Shown here one piece after another: positions 7,470-61,970 of a DNA stretch of 64,000 nucleotides (position 1 is the stretch's first letter; each line of letters begins with the position of its first letter). Position numbers and translations under genes: made by a program. The DNA is from Planctomycetaceae bacterium (GTDB lineage: Bacteria > Planctomycetota > Planctomycetia > Planctomycetales > Planctomycetaceae): NCBI GenBank assembly GCA_041749515.1, contig JBGTBF010000043.1:85526-149525 (forward strand), given 5' to 3'. Below the pieces are notes generated by a model that worked only from the letters and a program-made list of their open reading frames with translations, ran no database searches and was not told the DNA's origin.

Positions 7470-7519
7470 ATCGAACGACTCTCTGAGTTGTTCAACAAAG
7501 TCGCACGACTCCTTGAGTC

Positions 7520-8935
7520 GTGATTTTATCGAGTCAAAGATATTTGTGGAGTTTTGAAGTGGCCCCTGTCTGGATCAATCTGGCGTATCTCATCGCTGCT
7601 GTTTTCTTCATCCTTGGATTGAAGGGAATGACCAAACCTCGTACAGCGGTCCGGGGGAATCTGTTTGGTGCAATCGGGATGCTGATCGCCATCATTGCAA
7701 CGCTCTTGGCCGCAAGTGTGGTTGGTTATGCATGGATTATCGTCGGTGTGATTATTGGGACCGCAATTGGAGTCTATGCAGCCCAGACCGTGAAGATGGA
7801 ACAGATGCCAGAGATGGTCGCCCTGTTCAACGGTTTAGGCGGAGCAGCTTCGTTTCTAGTTGCGGGTGCAGACTTCTATACCAACTCTAGTACAGCTTCG
7901 AGTGATGTCGTGATCGCAACTGCACTCTCTGGAATCATTGGGGCGGTCACCTTCTCGGGAAGTGGAGTCGCTTTTGCGAAACTGGCCGAGTTCAAATTTA
8001 TGAAGAAGATCAAGCCACTCCCGATGCAGCAAATGATGAACGGCGGAATGGCGTTAGGGTTGCTGATCCTGACCGTGATCCTGGTGGCGAGTCCGGGTTC
8101 AATTTTATATTGGCTGATTGTGATTCTTGCCCTGGTGTTGGGCTATTATTTAACACTTGGCATTGGCGGGGCTGACATGCCAGTGGTGATTGCCTTACTC
8201 AACTCGTACTCTGGTCTGGCAGCTGCTGCCACCGGTTTCGTGCTGGGGAATAACATTTTGATCATCGCGGGTTCTCTGGTTGGTGCGAGTGGGCTGATTC
8301 TCACCAAGGTGATGTGCGATGCCATGAACCGTTCGTTGCCGGCGGTTTTGTTTGGAACTCTTGGACCAGCCGCAGATGGTCCAAGTGCGGATGAAGTGTA
8401 TACAAATGTCAAAGCGACCTCAGCGGATGAGGTTGCGATGCTATTGGACATTGCCCGCAAGGTTGTCATTGTGCCTGGGTATGGAATGGCGGTTGCCCAA
8501 GCGCAACATGCCGTGCGCGACCTGACAAATCTCTTGCAAAGCAAAGGCGTTGAGGTGGAGTTTGGTATTCATCCGGTGGCGGGTCGGATGCCTGGTCATA
8601 TGAACGTTTTGCTTGCAGAAGCGGATATTTCTTACGACTTGTTAAAAGAGATGGACGAAACAAATTCGACCATCGAGCAGTGTGACGTCTGCCTGGTCAT
8701 CGGTGCCAACGATACGGTCAATCCAGATGCTCGCACAAATCCGAAAAGCCCTATCGCTGGTATGCCGATTATCAATGCGGATAAAGCGAAGACCTGCGTG
8801 ATTATCAAACGCAGTCTCAGCCCCGGCTTCGCTGGAATTCCTAACCCACTCTTCTCCGCAGACAACGCCCTGATGCTCTTTGCCGATGGCAAGCAAGCTG
8901 TGCAAGATATCATTACCGCTATCAAAGAAGGCTAA
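7520..8935 (+). CDS. pntB: NAD(P) transhydrogenase subunit beta (PntB). True start is probably the GTG at 7559.
   Basis: Polytopic N-terminal membrane domain, then the NADP(H)-binding dIII domain (VIVPGYGMAVAQAQHAV..., GANDTVNP). Confidence 0.9.
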   Translation: MILSSQRYLWSFEVAPVWINLAYLIAAVFFILGLKGMTKPRTAVRGNLFGAIGMLIAIIATLLAASVVGYAWIIVGVIIGTAIGVYAAQTVKMEQMPEMVALFNGLGGAASFLVAGADFYTNSSTASSDVVIATALSGIIGAVTFSGSGVAFAKLAEFKFMKKIKPLPMQQMMNGGMALGLLILTVILVASPGSILYWLIVILALVLGYYLTLGIGGADMPVVIALLNSYSGLAAAATGFVLGNNILIIAGSLVGASGLILTKVMCDAMNRSLPAVLFGTLGPAADGPSADEVYTNVKATSADEVAMLLDIARKVVIVPGYGMAVAQAQHAVRDLTNLLQSKGVEVEFGIHPVAGRMPGHMNVLLAEADISYDLLKEMDETNSTIEQCDVCLVIGANDTVNPDARTNPKSPIAGMPIINADKAKTCVIIKRSLSPGFAGIPNPLFSADNALMLFADGKQAVQDIITAIKEG

Positions 8936-22623: not shown

Positions 22624-22836
22624 TAAAAGGGAAACTTCTTGGACGGGCCTGACCAAGGTCTCGACCTTATCGTCTTGCGACGACACTCTTATTTTACGCG
22701 ATCAAAACCGTTTGCCAAGATGCATATGCAACCTTTTTGTAAATTTTCAATAAAGGTTACCGCAAGCAGTGTATTATAATGCAACAATATTCCCGTATGT
22801 GCTGTCTTTTAACCAGAAAAGACTAAAGAAAAAAAG

Positions 22837-22911
22837 AGGCGCAGCCCGGATTCGAACCGGGGAAATAACGGATTTGCAATCCGTCGCCTTGGGCCACTTG
22901 GCTACTGCGCC
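22837..22911 (-). tRNA. tRNA-Cys (anticodon GCA)
   Basis: Reverse complement reads GGCGCAG...ACGGA-TTGCAAA-TCCGT...CCCGG-TTCGAAT-CCGGG-CTGCGCC-T. Acceptor stem is perfect, anticodon loop is TTGCAAA, discriminator is U. Matches the E. coli tRNA-Cys layout. Confidence 0.9.
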
Positions 22912-35151: not shown

Positions 35152-35556
35152 TGCCTTGTCTGGTTTTGTTGATTGGGGGACAGCTCGACGAAATGCGTGA
35201 TGTTGTCGTTTAATCCACGTCCACTCCACTTTACAAAAAAGGTAAAGGAATTCCGCGTTCCCCCCGATCTGAAAGCAGGAGCGATTTCAGCAGTCGCCAC
35301 GCGCTCGCCTTTGACGTGTTTGCCCGGAGATGAAGATCAACTCTTTTTGAACTCAAACTCAGGAGTTTTCATCGCTTACGAAAATGTGAAATATCGGTTT
35401 GAACTGACCTCAGTTGTTTTACGTTTGGTCTCCGGGAGGGTAGGATTTGAGAATTCACAGAGATGTCTTGATAAAACACAAAATTGCAGCCGACGGTTCC
35501 CTTCACGGAAACCTGCATCACAGTTATTAAACCTCACATTCACGAAAGGCATAGTC

Positions 35557-36678
35557 ATGGGACTCTTCGATAAACTACGCGCAGAATTGATCGACATCAT
35601 CGAGTGGGTCGATGATTCCAGACACACGATTGCCTGGCGATTTCCTCGCTATCATAACGAAATTAAGAACGGTGCGCAGTTGATCGTGCGGCCCGGACAG
35701 ATGGCGGTATTTGTGCATCGCGGTCAACTTGCCGATGTGTTTGAGCCGGGACACTATGATGTTAAAACAGACAACCTGCCAATTCTCAGCACAATTGCAG
35801 GCTGGAAATATGGTTTCAACAGCCCCTTCAAAGCAGAAGTCTATTTCGTAAATACCCGGCAAATCACCGACCTGAAATGGGGAACTCCCAATCCGGTGAT
35901 GCTTCGTGATGCAGACTTTGGTCCGATTCGACTACGGGCCTTCGGCACGTATTCCATGAAAGCGGTCGAACCGAAAGCCTTGTTGACCGAACTCATTGGC
36001 ACAGACTCGGAGTTTGAAGTCGACGAGATTAACGAACTCATGCGCGCGATCATTGCCTCTGCGTTTGCTGATCTTCTGGGGAGTTCACAGATCAGTGCCC
36101 TCGACCTGGCTGCCAATTATCGAGAGCTTTCAGAAAAACTCCGAGAGATGGTGATCGAACGAGTCGATGATGAGTACGGCCTTGACATCCCACAGTTCCA
36201 TATCGTCAATGTTTCGTTCCCTGAAGAGGTCGAAAAAGCACTTGATACCCGCTCCAGCATGGGAGTGATTGGAGACCTGAATCAGTTCCAGCAATTCCAG
36301 ATGGGAAAAGCGATGATGGCGGCTGCCGAAAACCAATCCGGTGGCGGAGCAGCTGAAGGCATGGGCCTTGGTATGGGATTCGCCATGGCCAACCGCATGG
36401 CAACCGGCATGGGTGGGCCAATGGGCGGCATGTCGGCCCCAATGGGACCACCTCCACTTCCAATGGAAATGTGGCACGTGGCAACTGGCGGAAAATCCGA
36501 TGGCCCCTATACAATTCAGCAGATGGCGCAGGGAGTTCAAAACGGACAATTACAAAAAGGGACGCTCGTCTGGAGCCAAGCTATCAGCAACTGGACCCCC
36601 GTCGAACAAGTCCCGCAACTTGCTCCTCTCTTCAACGCTGTACCACCATCACCGCCACCGATCCCGCCGGTTGATTAA
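35557..36678 (+). CDS. SPFH/band-7 family protein (Band_7_1/YdjI-like) with Gly/Met-rich linker and C-terminal GYF-like DUF4339 domain
   Basis: RBS aaagg before the ATG at 35557. N-terminus MGLFDKLRAELIDIIEWVDD. Linker GMGLGMGFAMANRMATGMGGPMGGM. C-terminus GPYTIQQMAQGVQNGQLQKGTLVWSQAISNWTPVEQVPQL. The ORF track's extended 5' start (35173) is unlikely. Confidence 0.75.
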   Translation: MGLFDKLRAELIDIIEWVDDSRHTIAWRFPRYHNEIKNGAQLIVRPGQMAVFVHRGQLADVFEPGHYDVKTDNLPILSTIAGWKYGFNSPFKAEVYFVNTRQITDLKWGTPNPVMLRDADFGPIRLRAFGTYSMKAVEPKALLTELIGTDSEFEVDEINELMRAIIASAFADLLGSSQISALDLAANYRELSEKLREMVIERVDDEYGLDIPQFHIVNVSFPEEVEKALDTRSSMGVIGDLNQFQQFQMGKAMMAAAENQSGGGAAEGMGLGMGFAMANRMATGMGGPMGGMSAPMGPPPLPMEMWHVATGGKSDGPYTIQQMAQGVQNGQLQKGTLVWSQAISNWTPVEQVPQLAPLFNAVPPSPPPIPPVD

Positions 36679-36686
36679 TACCCATT

Positions 36687-36717
36687 GTCGCTGACTTCTC
36701 CGAAGTCAGTGGTCAAC
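36687..36717. repeat. Stand-alone copy of the REP-like hairpin module (gtcg-ctgacttc-tcc-gaagtcag-tggtcaac), 8 bp after the SPFH gene stop
   Basis: The stem carries compensatory changes relative to copy A (CTGACTTC/GAAGTCAG versus CTGACCTC/GAGGTCAG). Flanks gtcg…tggtcaac are identical to copy A. Confidence 0.65.
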
Positions 36718-38215: not shown

Positions 38216-38310
38216 CGTAGGATAGGCTTCCAGCCTGTCAGTATTCTAAAAATTAAACATCTCAGAATGAACTGTCAGTTGAGTAGACAGGGTGGAAGCC
38301 TATCCTACGA
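38216..38310. repeat. Long imperfect inverted repeat: 24-bp arms with one mismatch, separated by 47 bp, in a 700-bp intergenic region
   Basis: Left arm cgtaggataggcttccagcctgtc (38216-38239). Right arm gacagggtggaagcctatcctacg (38287-38310). An internal ctgtcagt direct repeat lies in the spacer. Confidence 0.6.
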
Positions 38311-42157: not shown

Positions 42158-43828
42158 TTAATAGACTGAAAAGTTAATCGTTTCAGTCGTTATTTTTCCA
42201 CTGAGATCATCCTGCACTGTGAGTTTCAGCACGTGTGGGCCGGGTACCAAGTGTGTGGGCATGTCGATCCGGTAGCTGTGGTAGTAGTCGGTTCGCGGCG
42301 TTCGACACAGGTCTTCTGTTGGAGGAAAAGCGTTACGATCGACTAGTTTTCCATCCGTTCCACCTTGATAGATTTCTACCACCGACTTTAACTTTGTGCG
42401 GTAATACCCGTCTGTTGTTGGCTCGCTTTGAAAGTTTCTCACCTCCGTGTAGACCAGTACGGGCTGCCCGATGTTGAACTCATTCACCTCAAATTGATCA
42501 TAATTTCCGAAGCTGTTGATCTTGGAACAGAAGGTCACATTCTTGAGTTGCAGGTGCGAGATTTCTTGCAGGTGATGGGCAGCGTTGCGAAGTTGGGCAA
42601 TGGTCATGGTTGCTCGTTCTGCCGGACTGGCTGGCGATTGCTCGTCCAGATAATCAGACAGCCCGACAAACATCGCCGTCCAAAACTCCTGTTCAGCTTG
42701 CGAAATGCCAGGAATCGCCTGTTGTGCAAGTTGAGGTTGATCGCCAACCAAATACAACATCCGTAAGGCCACCTGTTTGCGAACGTCTCCACGAATAGCT
42801 GCACTTCCCGGAAGCAAAGAAGAGGTTTCTGCTTCCAAAAGAGAGATCAACTTATCGAGTTCGTCTTCCCACAATTCAGATCCACGGGGAATTCGTAATG
42901 GAGCAGTGTCGGTTGGCTTTGGCTCTGGAGCGGTGTTCAAGTCGAATTGAAGGGAATCCGATTTTGGCGGTTCCGTACTTTCTACATTTTCAGAAACAGT
43001 ACCTCCGCCACCTAGTATCTTTGGAAGCAAACTCAGATGGTTTGCTGTCTTCTCTTTCTCGGTGGGGGGCTTTTCCCCATTTGTCCAAATGCGTTTGGGG
43101 TCTGCCAATGACTTCAACCGATTTGGCCAACTCTGGTCTTTTACGGGACCGGGAGCTTCTAAACCATCTACAGGGGCATCAGCGTCTTCTGGCTTTAATT
43201 CTTCGCCTGTGGCAGAGTTGTCGATTGAGTTGTTTAGTTCTCGAGTTACATCAGCTTGTGAGCTGTCGTCTTGAGAGCTGTTGTCTGTAAGAGTGGCCTC
43301 TGAACTTGCAGAATTGAACGTGTTCAAACCGCTTCCCGAAACGGTTTGAATCTTTTCGTTTGTCTCAGCGATCACTTCTTCATCGCTTAACGGATTTTGA
43401 ACAACGAGTTTTTCTTTGGGGGCAACTTTTTCCGGTGCTACAGGATCTTCAATCCGGCGGGACTTCAAAATATACGGGACCATTTTTGCATCAACGCTAT
43501 TGAGATAGCTGACCCACTCCATCCGTTCTTCCGGGGGAAGATCTTTCAGTTCGGTATCGATCAATGCTTGCGTGGCTGGATCGTGAACGTTGTTTTGAGT
43601 TCCCTCTGCCACCAAAGGTTCACGGCCTGATTCGGTCGCGACAGGGGGAGTTTCGGCTTCAGATTCTAAAGACGCAGGAGAAGAAACCGGGGCTTCTTTG
43701 TTTTTGTTGAAAGAGGGAAGCGCCAGCCGATTGGGAAATGCAAAACGGGGGCTTCCGCCGATCGAGTTGCAGCCACAACTCATCAGAATCAAAAGTATCC
43801 CAAAGCTATCGACATAACGCCGTCGCAT
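42158..43828 (-). CDS. Hypothetical lipoprotein with an acidic Pro/Glu/Ser-rich low-complexity middle and a structured C-terminal domain
   Basis: N-terminus LLILMSCGCN is lipobox-like. 556 aa. No family recognised. Confidence 0.6.
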   Translation of the reverse strand: MRRRYVDSFGILLILMSCGCNSIGGSPRFAFPNRLALPSFNKNKEAPVSSPASLESEAETPPVATESGREPLVAEGTQNNVHDPATQALIDTELKDLPPEERMEWVSYLNSVDAKMVPYILKSRRIEDPVAPEKVAPKEKLVVQNPLSDEEVIAETNEKIQTVSGSGLNTFNSASSEATLTDNSSQDDSSQADVTRELNNSIDNSATGEELKPEDADAPVDGLEAPGPVKDQSWPNRLKSLADPKRIWTNGEKPPTEKEKTANHLSLLPKILGGGGTVSENVESTEPPKSDSLQFDLNTAPEPKPTDTAPLRIPRGSELWEDELDKLISLLEAETSSLLPGSAAIRGDVRKQVALRMLYLVGDQPQLAQQAIPGISQAEQEFWTAMFVGLSDYLDEQSPASPAERATMTIAQLRNAAHHLQEISHLQLKNVTFCSKINSFGNYDQFEVNEFNIGQPVLVYTEVRNFQSEPTTDGYYRTKLKSVVEIYQGGTDGKLVDRNAFPPTEDLCRTPRTDYYHSYRIDMPTHLVPGPHVLKLTVQDDLSGKITTETINFSVY

Positions 43829-44048
43829 GGCATCCTTGCCGTGACTACAGACTTAATAGTGATGTGATTCTTCAAGATGACTCAACCGAATTCATACAAC
43901 AAGACCAAGTTGCGAGAACTTCTTGAACAACCGTTAAACTTGTAAAACCTGCCGGTCTCGAACAGAGTAACTGAGAAAACAGGTAAAATAGAGGGGATGC
44001 ATATTCGTTGTAAGGTCTATGCAGGGGTCTTATTACTGCATAAGCGTT

Positions 44049-44163
44049 GGAGGTGTGATGACTGCGTTTGAGAAGAAATATGTCATTTGTTATTGGGAAT
44101 TTGTCATTTGTCATTGAAACAACCGGCCGTCTGTCGCTGACCTCTCCGAGGTCAGTGGTCAAC
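44049..44163. repeat. About 115-bp intergenic repeat element (copy A) ending in a REP-like perfect hairpin ctgacctc-tcc-gaggtcag
   Basis: About 85% identical to 61848..61953. Shares the hairpin module with 36687..36717. A partial fourth copy (gtcgctgacctc) lies at 44241..44252. Confidence 0.7.
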
Positions 44164-44329
44164 CAACAACCGGACCTCAACTGTGGAAGCGTGTCTCATC
44201 GCCAAAAAACAAACCACGGAACACGGAGTGCTCCGCGACTGTCGCTGACCTCTTCTTTCTCTGCGAACCAATCCGACTCCGCTCTCAGCGTTTAACAAAA
44301 TTCCCCGCTGGCAACTGGATACCTGTTGT

Positions 44330-44500
44330 AGGGTGCATTCCACACTTTGTAGGTCTCACATTTGAAAAACGCAGGCAAGTTTTGAGGTAACGCATTTCCA
44401 CGAGCCCGCAGCGTTAGCAAGGGATGGACTTTGATTTTTCTCCGTGGCGATCACTTCGGACAACACACCTCGTAAATTTCCCTTGCTGACGCTACGGGCT
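44330..44500. repeat. About 170-185 bp hairpin-forming repeat element, copy 1, bracketed by 19-23 bp direct repeats
   Basis: About 85-90% identical to 52799..52985. Internal 24-bp inverted repeat (44401-44424 / 44469-44492). Direct repeats gcaactggatacctgttgt at 44310-44328 and 44570-44588. Confidence 0.7.
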
Positions 44501-44687
44501 CGTAAAGATGCAACATCCATAACTTGACAATCGACGCAGTCACCCTGCGTTTCATAAAATGTCGCGCTCGCAACTGGATACCTGTTGTTCGGCATCGTCC
44601 AACCTACACACTAAAAGCCACAACGTGCGCAATGCACCCATACAGCGGCACGTTGTAATACTGTCATTCGGGAGGAGCAACTTGAAT

Positions 44688-46874
44688 TTAGCCTAGTGGC
44701 GGCTTGAGCATCGTCAGCCCGATGCGTTTTCTGTCTGCGTCGAGACTGTCGATCCAGACAGTCACAATATCGCCGACACCCACGATTTCATAAGGGGAGG
44801 CAACATAGGTCTTCGACATTTTACTTACATGCACAAGTCCGTCGCCTTTAATTCCAACATCGACGAAGGCTCCAAAATCAACAACATTCGTCACCGATCC
44901 GGTCAGTTCCATCCCCGGTGCAAGGTCTTCAAACGAGAGTACTTCACTGCGAAAGACCGGTCCGGGCAAATCTTCACGCGGATCGCGGCCCGGTTTTAAT
45001 AACGATTGCAAGAGTTGCTGTGCGGTATAGACGTCGGTCTCTAACTCATTTGCCAATTCATCCGCTTTGACGCTGACCATTTTCTCCTGGACTTCCGCTG
45101 GCAGTTTTCCACTTCTCAAATGGTCTTCCTGCAACTCAAATCGGGAGAGCAGCTTTCTGGCGATGGGATAACTCTCGGGGTGAATCCATGTTGAATCCAG
45201 TGGTTCTGGGCCTTCGGGCAGTTTTAAGAAACCGGCTGCTTGCGTATATGTTGCTTCACCGATTCCCGAAACTTGCAGAAGATCTGCGCGCTTTGAAAAC
45301 GGACCATGTTCGTTGCGATAAGCCACGATCTTTTTCGCAATGCTTCTTGAAAGTCCCGAGACATGTTTCAGAAGTTCAACGCTGGCATGGTTCAGGTCCA
45401 CACCAACATGGTTGACGCTCGACTCAACCACCGCAGCGAGAGACGTTTGCAATTGTTTCTCTGAAACATCATGTTGATACATGCCAACACCGATATGTTG
45501 GGGATCGATCTTAACCAGTTCACTCAGCGGATCCTGGAGCCGTCGCCCAATGGAAATCGTGCCTCGCACCGTTGCGTCAAGCTCAGGAAACTCTTCGCGA
45601 CCAGCTTCACTTGCAGAGTACACGCTGGCACCGGCTTCGTTCACAATGATGTACTTGATCCCAAGTTCCCTGGAACTGATTGTCTCTGCGACAAGTGCCT
45701 CGGTCTCGCGCGATGCGGTTCCGTTCCCGATGGCAATCACATCACAACGATGCGTCTTCACCAGCTCGGCCAGCTTCTCCTGCATCGCTTCTTTCTCTGC
45801 CGGTTTGACGACCGAGATCAAATCGCTGGCAAGTACATTGCCATCTTCATCAAGTGCCACAATTTTGCATCCAGTACGATATGCTGGATCAATCGCTAAC
45901 ACGCGTTTCATTCTCAATGGAGGTTGGAGTAACAAGTTGCGCAAGTTTTTGCAGAAGACTTCAATGGCATGTTCTTGGGCTTTGTCGCTGAGATCGCGAC
46001 GAATCTCTCGTTCGATACTGGGATTGATCATGCGTTTGAGAGCATCGTCAACACACTGCACCATGAAGTCACGTGCAGGGTGATTATTGAGTGCAAGCAA
46101 ACCGCCAACGCGAATGTGAGCGAGTTCCTGATCCCACTTGGTACTGACTCGCAATGCCTTTTTATGCTCCCCGCGATCAAGCGCCAGAATGCGATGCGGA
46201 GGAGCTTTGATCAGTACCTCTGAAAACTTCGCGTAGTCCTTAAATGTCTCTGCATCTTTAGATTTTGGAACCAGTTTACTTTCAATGGCACCGGTCTTCC
46301 AGGCGGTGTTGCGAACCACATCGCGAAGATCCGCCCGCTCCGCAATCCGTTCCACAATGATGTCCTGTGTCCCAGTAAGTACAACCTCGACTGACGTCAG
46401 TAAGGGGTGTTTGCCGACACAGTTTTGAGCAACCGCCGGCAACGCGGAGGCGGGTAACTTCCCGTCCCAAATCGCATTCGCCAGTGGGGTGAGGCCCATC
46501 TCACGCGCATCGTCAGCGCGCGTTTTCCGTTTTGATTTAAACGGAGCATACAATTCCTCGAGCCGTTTTAAAGAATCGGCCTGTTCGATTTGCTGCTTAA
46601 GTTCATCCGTCAGCTTACCTTGTTCGACCAGTGCTGCCAGCAGCTTTTCGCGACGATCCGCCAAAGCCCGGATTTCAGCAGCCAGGGACTGAATTGCACG
46701 TATCTGTTCTTCGTCTAGGCCGCCCGTCTGTTCTTGGCGGTACCGCGTAATAAACGGGACTGTGTTTTCGGCATCTAAAAGCTCAAGAGTATTCTTGACT
46801 TTCTTTTTAGCCAGACTCATTTTTTGAGCGATTAGCCGAATCAGATTTTGTTCGAGTTCATCCATGTGATTCAA
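44688..46874 (-). CDS. tex: Transcription accessory protein Tex (YqgF/HhH/S1 domains)
   Basis: N-terminus NLIRLIAQKMSLAKKKVKNTLELLDAENTVPFITRYRQEQTGGLDEEQIRAI is diagnostic. C-terminal S1 domain (…MELTGSVTNVVDFGAFVDVGIKGDGLVHVS…). 728 aa. Confidence 0.9.
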   Translation of the reverse strand: MNHMDELEQNLIRLIAQKMSLAKKKVKNTLELLDAENTVPFITRYRQEQTGGLDEEQIRAIQSLAAEIRALADRREKLLAALVEQGKLTDELKQQIEQADSLKRLEELYAPFKSKRKTRADDAREMGLTPLANAIWDGKLPASALPAVAQNCVGKHPLLTSVEVVLTGTQDIIVERIAERADLRDVVRNTAWKTGAIESKLVPKSKDAETFKDYAKFSEVLIKAPPHRILALDRGEHKKALRVSTKWDQELAHIRVGGLLALNNHPARDFMVQCVDDALKRMINPSIEREIRRDLSDKAQEHAIEVFCKNLRNLLLQPPLRMKRVLAIDPAYRTGCKIVALDEDGNVLASDLISVVKPAEKEAMQEKLAELVKTHRCDVIAIGNGTASRETEALVAETISSRELGIKYIIVNEAGASVYSASEAGREEFPELDATVRGTISIGRRLQDPLSELVKIDPQHIGVGMYQHDVSEKQLQTSLAAVVESSVNHVGVDLNHASVELLKHVSGLSRSIAKKIVAYRNEHGPFSKRADLLQVSGIGEATYTQAAGFLKLPEGPEPLDSTWIHPESYPIARKLLSRFELQEDHLRSGKLPAEVQEKMVSVKADELANELETDVYTAQQLLQSLLKPGRDPREDLPGPVFRSEVLSFEDLAPGMELTGSVTNVVDFGAFVDVGIKGDGLVHVSKMSKTYVASPYEIVGVGDIVTVWIDSLDADRKRIGLTMLKPPLG

Positions 46875-47634
46875 ATCAATTCCAAGAGTTTTCGCTGTGA
46901 TAAACGCATGCTCAAGGAATTGATTATGACTAGCAGAGTCGCATCTGTCACCTCCTCACCCGATTTTTAGTCTCGTGGGTTTCCCCATCGCCGATCAACT
47001 TTGCAAAACTCTGCGTCTGATCGACCTCTGCGTTTCATAAAACTCCTTGATCGCACTCTTCAGCCAGCACCAGCGGATCAAATTCAGCGCGGAGAATTTT
47101 TGCCACAATCACACTTGTACAACCCCACAGCGTTTCGAGTGGTGAGCTTGTCATTCTGCTTCGAGGCGATCACCACGTACCACACATCAGAAATTCGCTT
47201 GACTGATCTGTGGGGTTTGTAGAAATTCGCAATTTAACGATGAATGGCTGGAGTGGAATTCACCAGATTCAATGTGTATTATTAACCGTTGAGTTAAAGG
47301 AGCAACTAAAGTTGGTATACCAATTGCTTTGTTGGCTTTAAGTGACCGGATAGCTGATACTTGAGTGATTTCACATGGAGTTTGTATCAACTTAAACGAG
47401 CATTTGCGCATCGAGTGCGCATTATTGCTCAGAAAACAGGCAACGCCTGATCCAGAACTGCTGCATGATGCAAACATGGTTTCTACTCTTTCACCTTTTA
47501 AAGGGTATAAACTTGAATCCCCGGACGTTCTACCTGGCGTTCGCGCTCAACTCCTTGGATTCTTTTTGAACAGGCAGGGTGCCTGTGAACTTCAGTAATT
47601 TCAGGTGACACAAACAATCGAGAAGGATCATTAC

Positions 47635-52645: not shown

Positions 52646-52798
52646 TCGAAATTGGACTTACATGGTAAGGTCCGGGAAAAGGACCGCGTTGTGATGAATT
52701 GGTTTTAAAGAATGAAATGAGGAAAGTATCGGCATACCTTAAATGAGCCATACTTGTTCTGCATTCTAGTTAAAACAACGCATCCGAGAAATGCACCA

Positions 52799-52985
52799 GG
52801 GTGCATTCCGCACTTTGTATGTCTCACACTTGAAATCGCAGGCAAGTTTTGAAGTAACGCATTTCCACGAGCCCGCAGCGTCAGCAAGGGATGGAATATG
52901 GCTTTACTGCGTGGTGATTACTGCGAACAACATACTTCGTACTTCGTAAATTCCCCTTGCTGACGCTACGGGCTCGTGAAAGATG
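52799..52985. repeat. About 185-bp hairpin-forming repeat element, copy 2, in the mutS / DUF1559 intergenic region
   Basis: Aligns with 44330..44500 and has the same internal 24-bp inverted repeat (cgagcccgcagcgtcagcaaggga / ccccttgctgacgctacgggctcg). Confidence 0.7.
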
Positions 52986-61707: not shown

Positions 61708-61847
61708 AGAATTTCCAGAGACAAATGTCTGAGATGGGTACATTCGGCGTTTTGAATGAGTCACGCTTGAGCGTTTTTGGTCCTGTGTTTTCTTAAACGC
61801 AGAGGGTGCGGTGATGCGGAGCATCGCAGATGGCTTTCCAGCGCGAT

Positions 61848-61953
61848 GGAGGTGTGATGATCGCGTTTGGAATGAAAGAAGATTTGTTATTGGGAGTTTT
61901 TCATTTGTCTTTGAAACATTTGCAGACGGTCGCTGACCTCTCCGAAGTCAGTG
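61848..61953. repeat. About 105-bp intergenic repeat element (copy B) ending in a REP-like hairpin ctgacctc-tcc-gaagtcag
   Basis: Aligns with 44049..44163, including the conserved ggaggtgtgatga and atttgttattggga blocks. Confidence 0.7.
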
Positions 61954-61970
61954 GGGCATTAACGCAAGCA

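Follow-up and report, generated by a model that had tools for sequence, protein, structure and literature searches.

The window that we analysed, by which we mean the whole 64,000-nt stretch, has the gene content of an ordinary core planctomycete chromosome, including PSCyt1/PSCyt2/PSD1, DUF1559 proteins, pntAB, trpE, DeaD, leuA, MutS, Tex, ComM and RNase PH, together with two tRNA genes (tRNA-Glu at 1944-2016 and tRNA-Cys at 22836-22911). No transposase, integrase or phage gene was seen in positions 1-64000, and GC skew followed no trend across the window. Between the protein-coding genes we found a short tagged hairpin of the form GTCG-CTGAC(Y)(Y)C-TCC-G(R)(R)GTCAG-TGG, which is present in three full copies, all on the forward strand (units C, A and B; Table 1). 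A scan of the window with the pattern GTCGCTGACYYCTCCGARGTCAGTGG returned these three matches, starting at 36687, 44133 and 61929, where chance predicts 0. A preliminary description of this DNA had reported three such hairpins and a partial copy near 44241-44252; all of them were recovered, the partial one as TGTCGCTGACCTCT. Its list was nevertheless incomplete, as a covariance model trained on ten units added a fourth, diverged copy on the reverse strand, unit D (27.4 bits, E 6e-6).

Table 1. Tagged hairpins, associated modules and other repeats in the 64-kb window, with the array sites found in related contigs.
Feature	Position	Strand	Sequence and organisation	Neighbouring genes
REP-type unit C	36687-36712	+	GTCGCTGACTTCTCCGAAGTCAGTGG; tag GTCG, stem CTGACTTC/GAAGTCAG, loop TCC, tail TGG; singleton	8 nt past the TAA stop of a co-oriented SPFH/GYF gene (35173-36678); 93 nt to the stop of a convergent 341-aa gene
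REP-type unit A	44133-44158	+	GTCGCTGACCTCTCCGAGGTCAGTGG; GTCG-CTGACCTC-TCC-GAGGTCAG-TGG; left half of head-to-head doublet; 45.0 bits	Flanked by genes for a 556-aa protein and a Tex-like protein (gap of 859 nt); antisense to each
REP-type unit D, diverged	44239-44214 (whole feature, 44203..44239)	-	GTCG-CGGAGCAC-TCC-GTGTTCCG-TGG, then TTTGTTTTTT; right half of doublet	Co-oriented with the Tex-like gene 448 nt upstream
Truncated REP-type unit	44240-44253	+	TGTCGCTGACCTCT; T, tag GTCG, 5' arm CTGACCTC, T	
REP-type unit B	61929-61954	+	GTCGCTGACCTCTCCGAAGTCAGTGG; GTCG-CTGACCTC-TCC-GAAGTCAG-TGG; 43.0 bits	Flanked by the genes of an aldo/keto reductase and of ComM/YifB; 16 nt to the stop of the convergent ComM/YifB gene
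5' module, copy A (85 nt)	44048..44132	+	TGGAGGTGTGATGA ... ATTTGTTATTGGGA ... TTGAAACA; includes a 19-codon ORF without conservation in copy B	
5' module, copy B (82 nt)	61847..61928	+		Begins 140 nt past the stop of the co-oriented aldo/keto reductase gene
Canonical GTAG REP doublet	38217-38239; 38286-38308	+; -	GTAG-GATAGGCT-TCC-AGCCTGTC; inverted, slightly degenerate partner	Divergent gap between the 341-aa and 371-aa genes
Second repeat family	44330-44506; 52798-52980		86-93% identical between sites	
Hairpins of the second family	44401-44424; 44479-44502; 52868-52891; 52953-52976	+; -; +; -	One inverted doublet per site	
42-nt direct repeats	44288-44329; 44547-44588; partial, 47028-47055		86% identical; bracket the doublet of the second family	Partial third copy upstream of the Tex-like gene
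REEB503-like array sites	L026 1-700; L026 10150-10357; L018 12986-13382; L030 1-270; L004 2317-2551	- (L026 1-700)		

All four full units of the window are 26 nt long, with an 8-bp stem and a 3-nt loop. Unit C matched the covariance model with 51.1 bits (E 2e-13) and gave folding z-scores of -4.25 as RNA and -3.96 as DNA; the DNA fold of unit B is weak, one of its stem positions reading C.A on the forward strand and U.G on the reverse strand. Units A and D form a head-to-head doublet (44133-44239) in which the tags face outward across a 55-nt spacer, and the truncated unit stands back to back with the tag of unit D, which extends the doublet to a small cluster at 44133-44253.

Every unit in the window is intergenic, with B and C lying in convergent gaps and A and D sharing a tandem gap. 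The strand that carries GTCG has the same sense as the upstream gene at three of the four window units (B, C and D) and at all five loci from other lineages in which that gene is known, and the distance from stop codon to unit runs from 0 to 448 nt overall, from 0 to 184 nt in those five loci and from 8 to 58 nt in several loci. The upstream genes themselves are unrelated (SPFH, aldo/keto reductase, Tex, sulfatase, LVIVD, DUF3485, PKS/GNAT and GT4). The preliminary description had placed all copies in short gaps at the 3' ends of genes, which does not hold for copy A, as it lies within the hairpin cluster of an 859-nt gap and is antisense to its neighbours. A stable sense-strand hairpin just past a stop codon is also what an intrinsic terminator looks like, and unit D, which is followed by a T-run, is a plausible terminator of the Tex-like gene. 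In a terminator scan, unit D alone qualified and no U-tract was found after units A, B or C. Since copy A is antisense and these three units are without a U-tract, a terminator role is not general, and we rejected the intrinsic terminator as an identity for the family, whose sequence is moreover repeated, tagged and found in arrays.

We then considered whether the stem is maintained as a paired structure. At stem position 6, copy C has T-A and copy A has C-G, with copy B intermediate, so that the paired substitutions noticed in the preliminary description are real. The pairing count was made on nine distinct units and an 11-bp helix, and 98% of the helix cells were paired, versus 28-49% when the partners were slid; the search pattern itself specified the tag, the outer stem, the loop and the tail, and the conservation of these across lineages is therefore not independent evidence. 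Six of the 11 pairs were changed on both sides, a number reached by 1 of 500 shuffles, and the covariation score was 0.452 versus 0.124 in shuffles. Free of the pattern bias are the four inner pairs, as well as unit D and the GTAG and TGCC variants, which came from the covariance model or from a tag-and-hairpin scan. The helix attains 11 bp on the GTCG strand, where tag and tail add three pairs, two of them wobbles. These are U.G, C-G and G.U in GTCG...TGG and U.G, A-U and G-C in the GTAG...CTG variant, so that the pairing of tag with tail covaries as well (C-G against A-U). The U.G and G.U at the base of the helix pair on the GTCG strand only, as the opposite strand has A.C mismatches in their place. 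The hairpin is real; matching mutations preserve the pairing of its stem, which is selected for pairing in single-stranded nucleic acid. Selection on secondary structure, in RNA or single-stranded DNA, had been proposed from three copies; with the related lineages and unit D, the covariation now extends far past these. Searches with the Rfam covariance models returned only two tRNAs above the gathering threshold in the window and nothing relevant at E<=10 in 43800-44700.

The same evidence bears on the idea that the palindrome is an operator in double-stranded DNA, recognised by a dimeric protein through the half-sites CTGA-N11-TCAG. An invariant GA/TC in the outer stem and the intergenic position of the sites are what such an operator would present, but a spacer between half-sites has no need of self-complementarity, and here the covariation extends to every inner pair. 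A symmetric site would not be expected to show a G.U asymmetry or to have a tag and a tail that form no palindrome (GTCG vs CCA). The neighbouring genes are unrelated, and we regard an operator as extremely unlikely.

To follow the hairpin beyond the window, genome and metagenome collections were scanned with GTCGCTGA-N4-TCC-N4-TCAGTGG, a pattern that places no constraint on four of the stem pairs. In the genome collection there were 16 matches, where ~17 were calculated by chance. Five of the 16 are in Planctomycetota metagenome-assembled genomes (MAGs), and all five have 4/4 Watson-Crick inner pairs in different sequences (ATGC/GCAT, TTTC/GAAA and TCGC/GCGA), versus a perfect inner stem in 1 of the 11 other matches, whose number fits the ~17 calculated for chance. 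In the metagenome scan (19 loci), the hairpins were perfect in all contigs that share DNA with those planctomycete genomes and in 0 of the other matches. No match was found in viral contigs (two scans), plasmids or phages. Two individual loci deserve mention. One perfect hairpin (GGTT/AACC; L003, 7104-7129) lies between two tRNA genes of an actinobacterial (Marmoricola) MAG; ~0.04 perfect hairpins of this sort are expected among the chance matches, and this one may be a tRNA-spacer hairpin without relation to the family. The other locus is in a Pirellula sp. MAG (L010, 2042-2067), where the TGA within the GTCGCTGA of the hairpin serves as stop codon for an LVIVD-repeat protein, which echoes a published remark that REP termini often supply stop codons.

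In REEB503-like Planctomycetota contigs the covariance model found >35 units in ~30 kb. Units with the inner stem TTTC/GAAA are repeated there head to tail with a period of 80 nt (L026), while a 154-nt array unit combines a GTCG unit with an inverted GTAG-ATGATTTC-TCC-GAAATCAT-CTG partner and includes a 21-nt tandem duplication of the tag and 5' arm. The tandem arrays reach 8 units. Inverted GTAG partners were present at L018, L026, L030 and L004, and head-to-head GTCG/GTAG doublets and arrays at the first three of these; in the L018 arrays a truncated 5' half precedes every full unit, analogous to the truncated unit of the window. All window copies carry GTCG, and GTAG is found in these inverted partners of the sister lineage. 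The distribution is patchy. The window itself belongs to a Planctomicrobium-like member of the Planctomycetaceae. The nearest named relatives by ComM are Planctomicrobium spp. (~82% identity), which are not syntenic with the window, and the covariance model gave no match at E<0.05 in ~104 kb from five relatives at that level of ComM identity, versus 4 units in this 64 kb.

The preliminary description had taken an element of 105-115 bp, with a conserved Shine-Dalgarno (SD)-ATG block and the hairpin at its end, to be the repeating unit. Copies A (~44048-44158) and B (~61847-61954) are indeed 82% identical over 111 columns with one 2-nt indel, and the similarity ends at the last base of the hairpin and fades ~10 nt upstream of GGAGGTG, just upstream of TGGAGGTG. 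The 85-nt module 5' of the hairpin is, however, present in copies A and B only, and what is conserved and shared widely is the tagged hairpin of 26 nt. We found no homology between this module and the sequences beside the hairpin in other lineages or in REEB503-like arrays, the scores being within the shuffle range, as they were for the spacer between unit A and the truncated unit. As the A/B similarity is confined to the borders of the element, the flanking genes were not duplicated, and as the genes next to C, A and B are mutually unrelated, there was no segmental duplication, an outcome that the preliminary description had allowed for. Two 82% identical stretches do exist, and there is nothing more in favour of segmental duplication or chance similarity as the source of the repeat; with 0 chance matches expected and related units elsewhere, the likelihood of either is next to nil.

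The role of the module was considered separately. The indel shifts the reading frame after codon ~10, so that the peptide is 19 aa long in A and becomes a read-through in B, and the earlier judgement that a conserved micropeptide is unlikely stands. Translated frames of the element (chimeric, six-frame) had no match at E<=10 among 5.8 billion predicted proteins, and no sigma-70-like promoter was found upstream of copy A or B. Beyond the hairpin, the module does not exceed its shuffles in stability (z -0.39 and +0.85). When identical and non-identical columns were shuffled, a longest run of at least 17 nt arose with P=0.47 and a second run of at least 14 nt with P=0.27, and the identical 13-14-nt block is what 82% identity leads one to expect; the presence of three identical runs of at least 14 nt is mildly unusual (P=0.026). 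GGAGG occurs 68 times on the two strands of the window, versus ~124 expected from base composition, and precedes almost no long ORF. Its scarcity is consistent with weak Shine-Dalgarno use in this genome.

These results bear on the suggestion that the SD-ATG block sequesters ribosomes or acts as a mobile ribosome-binding site, and on the broader idea that the ~110-nt element is a small gene, either an sRNA or a leader ORF, with a functional SD-ATG (as a mobile ribosome-binding site, ribosome sponge or start-stop) and the hairpin as its terminator. In favour of a small gene, TGGAGGTGTGATGA is identical in A and B and stands at the 5' edge of their common sequence, and the three long identical runs point the same way. 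There are only two copies, however, with different peptides after the frame-shifting indel, no promoter, no excess stability and no protein match; the module is absent from all other hairpin-bearing lineages, and GGAGG is under-represented and rarely stands before genes. We therefore consider a small gene very unlikely, and the ribosome-related proposal is not upheld. REP clusters are known to carry flanking DNA along (PMC3733652), and the 85-nt module is most likely flanking DNA that was copied once together with the REP, making a two-member composite repeat without a ribosome-related role. For annotation, this means that no gene should be assigned to the SD-ATG block.

REPs have been studied in depth in Proteobacteria but scarcely in Planctomycetota. 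GTAG-tagged REPs have nonetheless been described in R. baltica, P. brasiliensis and P. limnophilus (Di Nocera et al. 2013, PMC3733652), and REPs flanking the genes of REP-associated HUH-Y1 transposases (RAYTs) in P. brasiliensis include GTAG-GGTCCGC-TCC-GCGGACC and GTGGCTGAC... (Quentin et al. 2018, PMC6006769, Table S1). In the GTAG super-family the tag stands at the 5' foot of the stem, degenerates to GTMG in some families (GYAG, GYRG, GTRG and GTGG are further forms) and is unpaired by the published definition; most stems measure 6-9 bp and loops 2-3 nt, G-T pairs occur often, complementary changes in the stem distinguish the sub-families, and the units are found for the most part 3' of ORFs, where the gap is convergent or tandem, with head-to-head dimers favoured (PMC3733652). 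The hairpin of the window is likewise a 20-40-nt extragenic palindrome with a 5' tetranucleotide tag (GTCG being a case of GTMG), an 8-bp stem and a TCC loop. It too tolerates G-T pairs, changes its stem by complementary substitutions, lies downstream of ORFs, forms dimers, clusters and arrays, and is patchily distributed. Unlike the published tag, positions 2-4 of GTCG can pair with the TGG tail and covary with it. Judged by this comparison, the GTCG hairpin is a REP-type family with a slightly unusual tag, fitting the REP format feature by feature except for the pairing tag. Its earlier characterisation as a novel REP-like family, of the REP/BIME kind, was thus right about the kind of element, whereas 'novel' overstated the case given the GTAG/GTMG REPs already described in Planctomycetes (PMC3733652, PMC6006769). 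The exact GTCGCTGA unit is not listed in Table S1 of PMC6006769.

In their organisation the units also recall the BIMEs of E. coli and the REPINs of Pseudomonas, as they include inverted pairs with a short spacer (44133-44239 with its 55 nt, and the GTCG/GTAG pairs of L018). As in BIMEs, the two members of a pair differ (compare the Y and Z types of REP) and doublets are reiterated in tandem with flanking DNA. Unlike in REPINs, the stems of the window doublet are unrelated and form no joint long hairpin, and most window copies are singletons. We rejected the REPIN on the 136-nt doublet region, which is without a long hairpin (z -0.37 on the forward and -1.5 on the reverse strand).

Several other identities were tried and rejected. 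CGTC-tagged REPs share an 8-bp stem and a 3-nt tail with our unit, and in copies A and C the stem follows TGTC, which is among the listed variants of CGTC. Our stem, however, begins with CT or CG, the loop is a 3-nt TCC, the tail is TGG and the sister variant carries GTAG, whereas CGTC REPs have A/T at the first two stem positions, loops of 4-5 nt and a CCA tail on the tag strand (PMC3733652). MITEs and CRISPR repeats are likewise short non-coding repeats, but the 110-nt composite has no terminal inverted repeats and no flanking direct repeats that could be target-site duplications. The ends GTCGC...GTGG and the length of the unit recall, if loosely, type I-C CRISPR repeats; its copies are solitary or stand in arrays with identical spacers (period 80 or 154 nt), and cas genes are absent. 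A SECIS or other recoding signal acting through the TGA of the stem was dismissed, as this TGA is out of frame at copy C and a plain stop codon in L010. So were a DNA uptake sequence, as there are four copies in 64 kb and none in coding DNA, and an integron attC site, as the unit is too short, its neighbours are housekeeping genes and no integrase is present.

Taken with established REP biology, these data lead us to infer, with a probability of about 65%, that the hairpin is a 26-nt GTAG-type REP with a GTCG variant of the tag, moved as single-stranded DNA by a RAYT and present in mRNA as a 3' stem-loop, the module of copies A and B being a co-copied flank. The hairpin would form in single-stranded DNA, where a RAYT would cut and rejoin at the tag. 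Mobilisation of this kind would explain why units are scattered behind unrelated genes, pair up as inverted doublets, build tandem arrays and are specific to certain lineages. Transcription from the co-oriented upstream gene would then place a stable stem-loop at the 3' end of the RNA, which may shield the mRNA against 3' exonucleases or, at units with a U-run behind them such as D, terminate transcription. No RAYT or IS200-like gene was found among the ~40 ORFs of the window with Pfam, nor in the fetched loci by tblastn with E. coli RAYT and IS200 TnpA, the latter being a weak negative.

The RNA stage of this scheme could instead be the whole function. The hairpin would then be a host-encoded 3'-end element of RNA, either read by a conserved planctomycete RNA-binding or processing factor or itself a factor-dependent terminator, and would have spread by ordinary recombination and selection. 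G.U pairs that form on one strand only and an orientation shared with upstream genes agree with this, as do the position of the hairpin 8-58 nt past stop codons in several loci, its overlap with the TGA stop in L010, the U-run of unit D and the lack of a transposase gene in the window and fetched loci. Such an element should, however, also serve the nearest relatives, which need mRNA termination and stability as well, yet it is absent from ~104 kb of their DNA, and a 3'-end signal needs neither arrays of up to 8 units nor inverted GTCG/GTAG doublets. Copy A is antisense, no Rfam model matched, and RNA-like features of this sort are known for REPs (PMC3733652). We consider a host-encoded 3'-end element unlikely, though it is the main rival. 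A bolder version holds that GUCG-stem-UCC-stem-UGG is not, or is no longer, driven by a transposase and serves across Planctomycetota as a strand-specific mRNA 3'-end signal with a dedicated protein, the GGAGGUG module, which is anti-16S-complementary, being a small RNA that rides along; this we hold to be distinctly improbable.

The RAYT-mobilised REP, our preferred reading, would not be alone in this genome, as two further repeat families of REP-like form are present in the window (Table 1). The first is a doublet of canonical GTAG-tagged REPs with the geometry of the GTCG hairpins, its tags pointing outward across a 46-nt spacer, and it resembles RAYT-flanking REPs such as GTAGGACAGGCTTCAGTCTGTC (PMC6006769, Table S1). 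The hairpins of the second, with the sequence CACGAGCCCG(C/T)AGCGT(C/T)AGCAAGGGA, closely resemble the 'atypical' hairpins that flank class-3 TnpA_Y1 (HUH-Y1) genes of P. limnophilus, CACGAGCCGGAAGCGTGAGCGACGGGT (PMC6006769, Table S1), a likeness which suggests that the genome may encode an enzyme of this type. The window thus holds three co-resident REP-like families (GTCG-tagged, canonical GTAG-tagged and class-3 TnpA_Y1 type) in one planctomycete genome. With its clean covariation across lineages and a tag that pairs with the tail, the GTCG family offers a convenient test case for the joint recognition of tag and stem by HUH-Y1 enzymes, and for whether REPs act as 3'-end hairpins in a phylum where canonical terminators are few. 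The current understanding of REPs is unchanged by these findings.

Two smaller observations concern the remaining repeats. On the reverse strand the 42-nt direct repeats read ...TTTTATGAAACGCAG..., like a repeated gene start, and the 79-aa ORF that spans them (44356-44595, reverse strand) is probably spurious. At 7500-7522 on the forward strand, a further perfect hairpin with a GTCG tag, GTCG-CACGACTC-CTT-GAGTCGTG, which may be an intercistronic hairpin unrelated to the REP family, lies in the 50-nt gap between the transhydrogenase gene PNTB_4TM (PF12769) and pntB.
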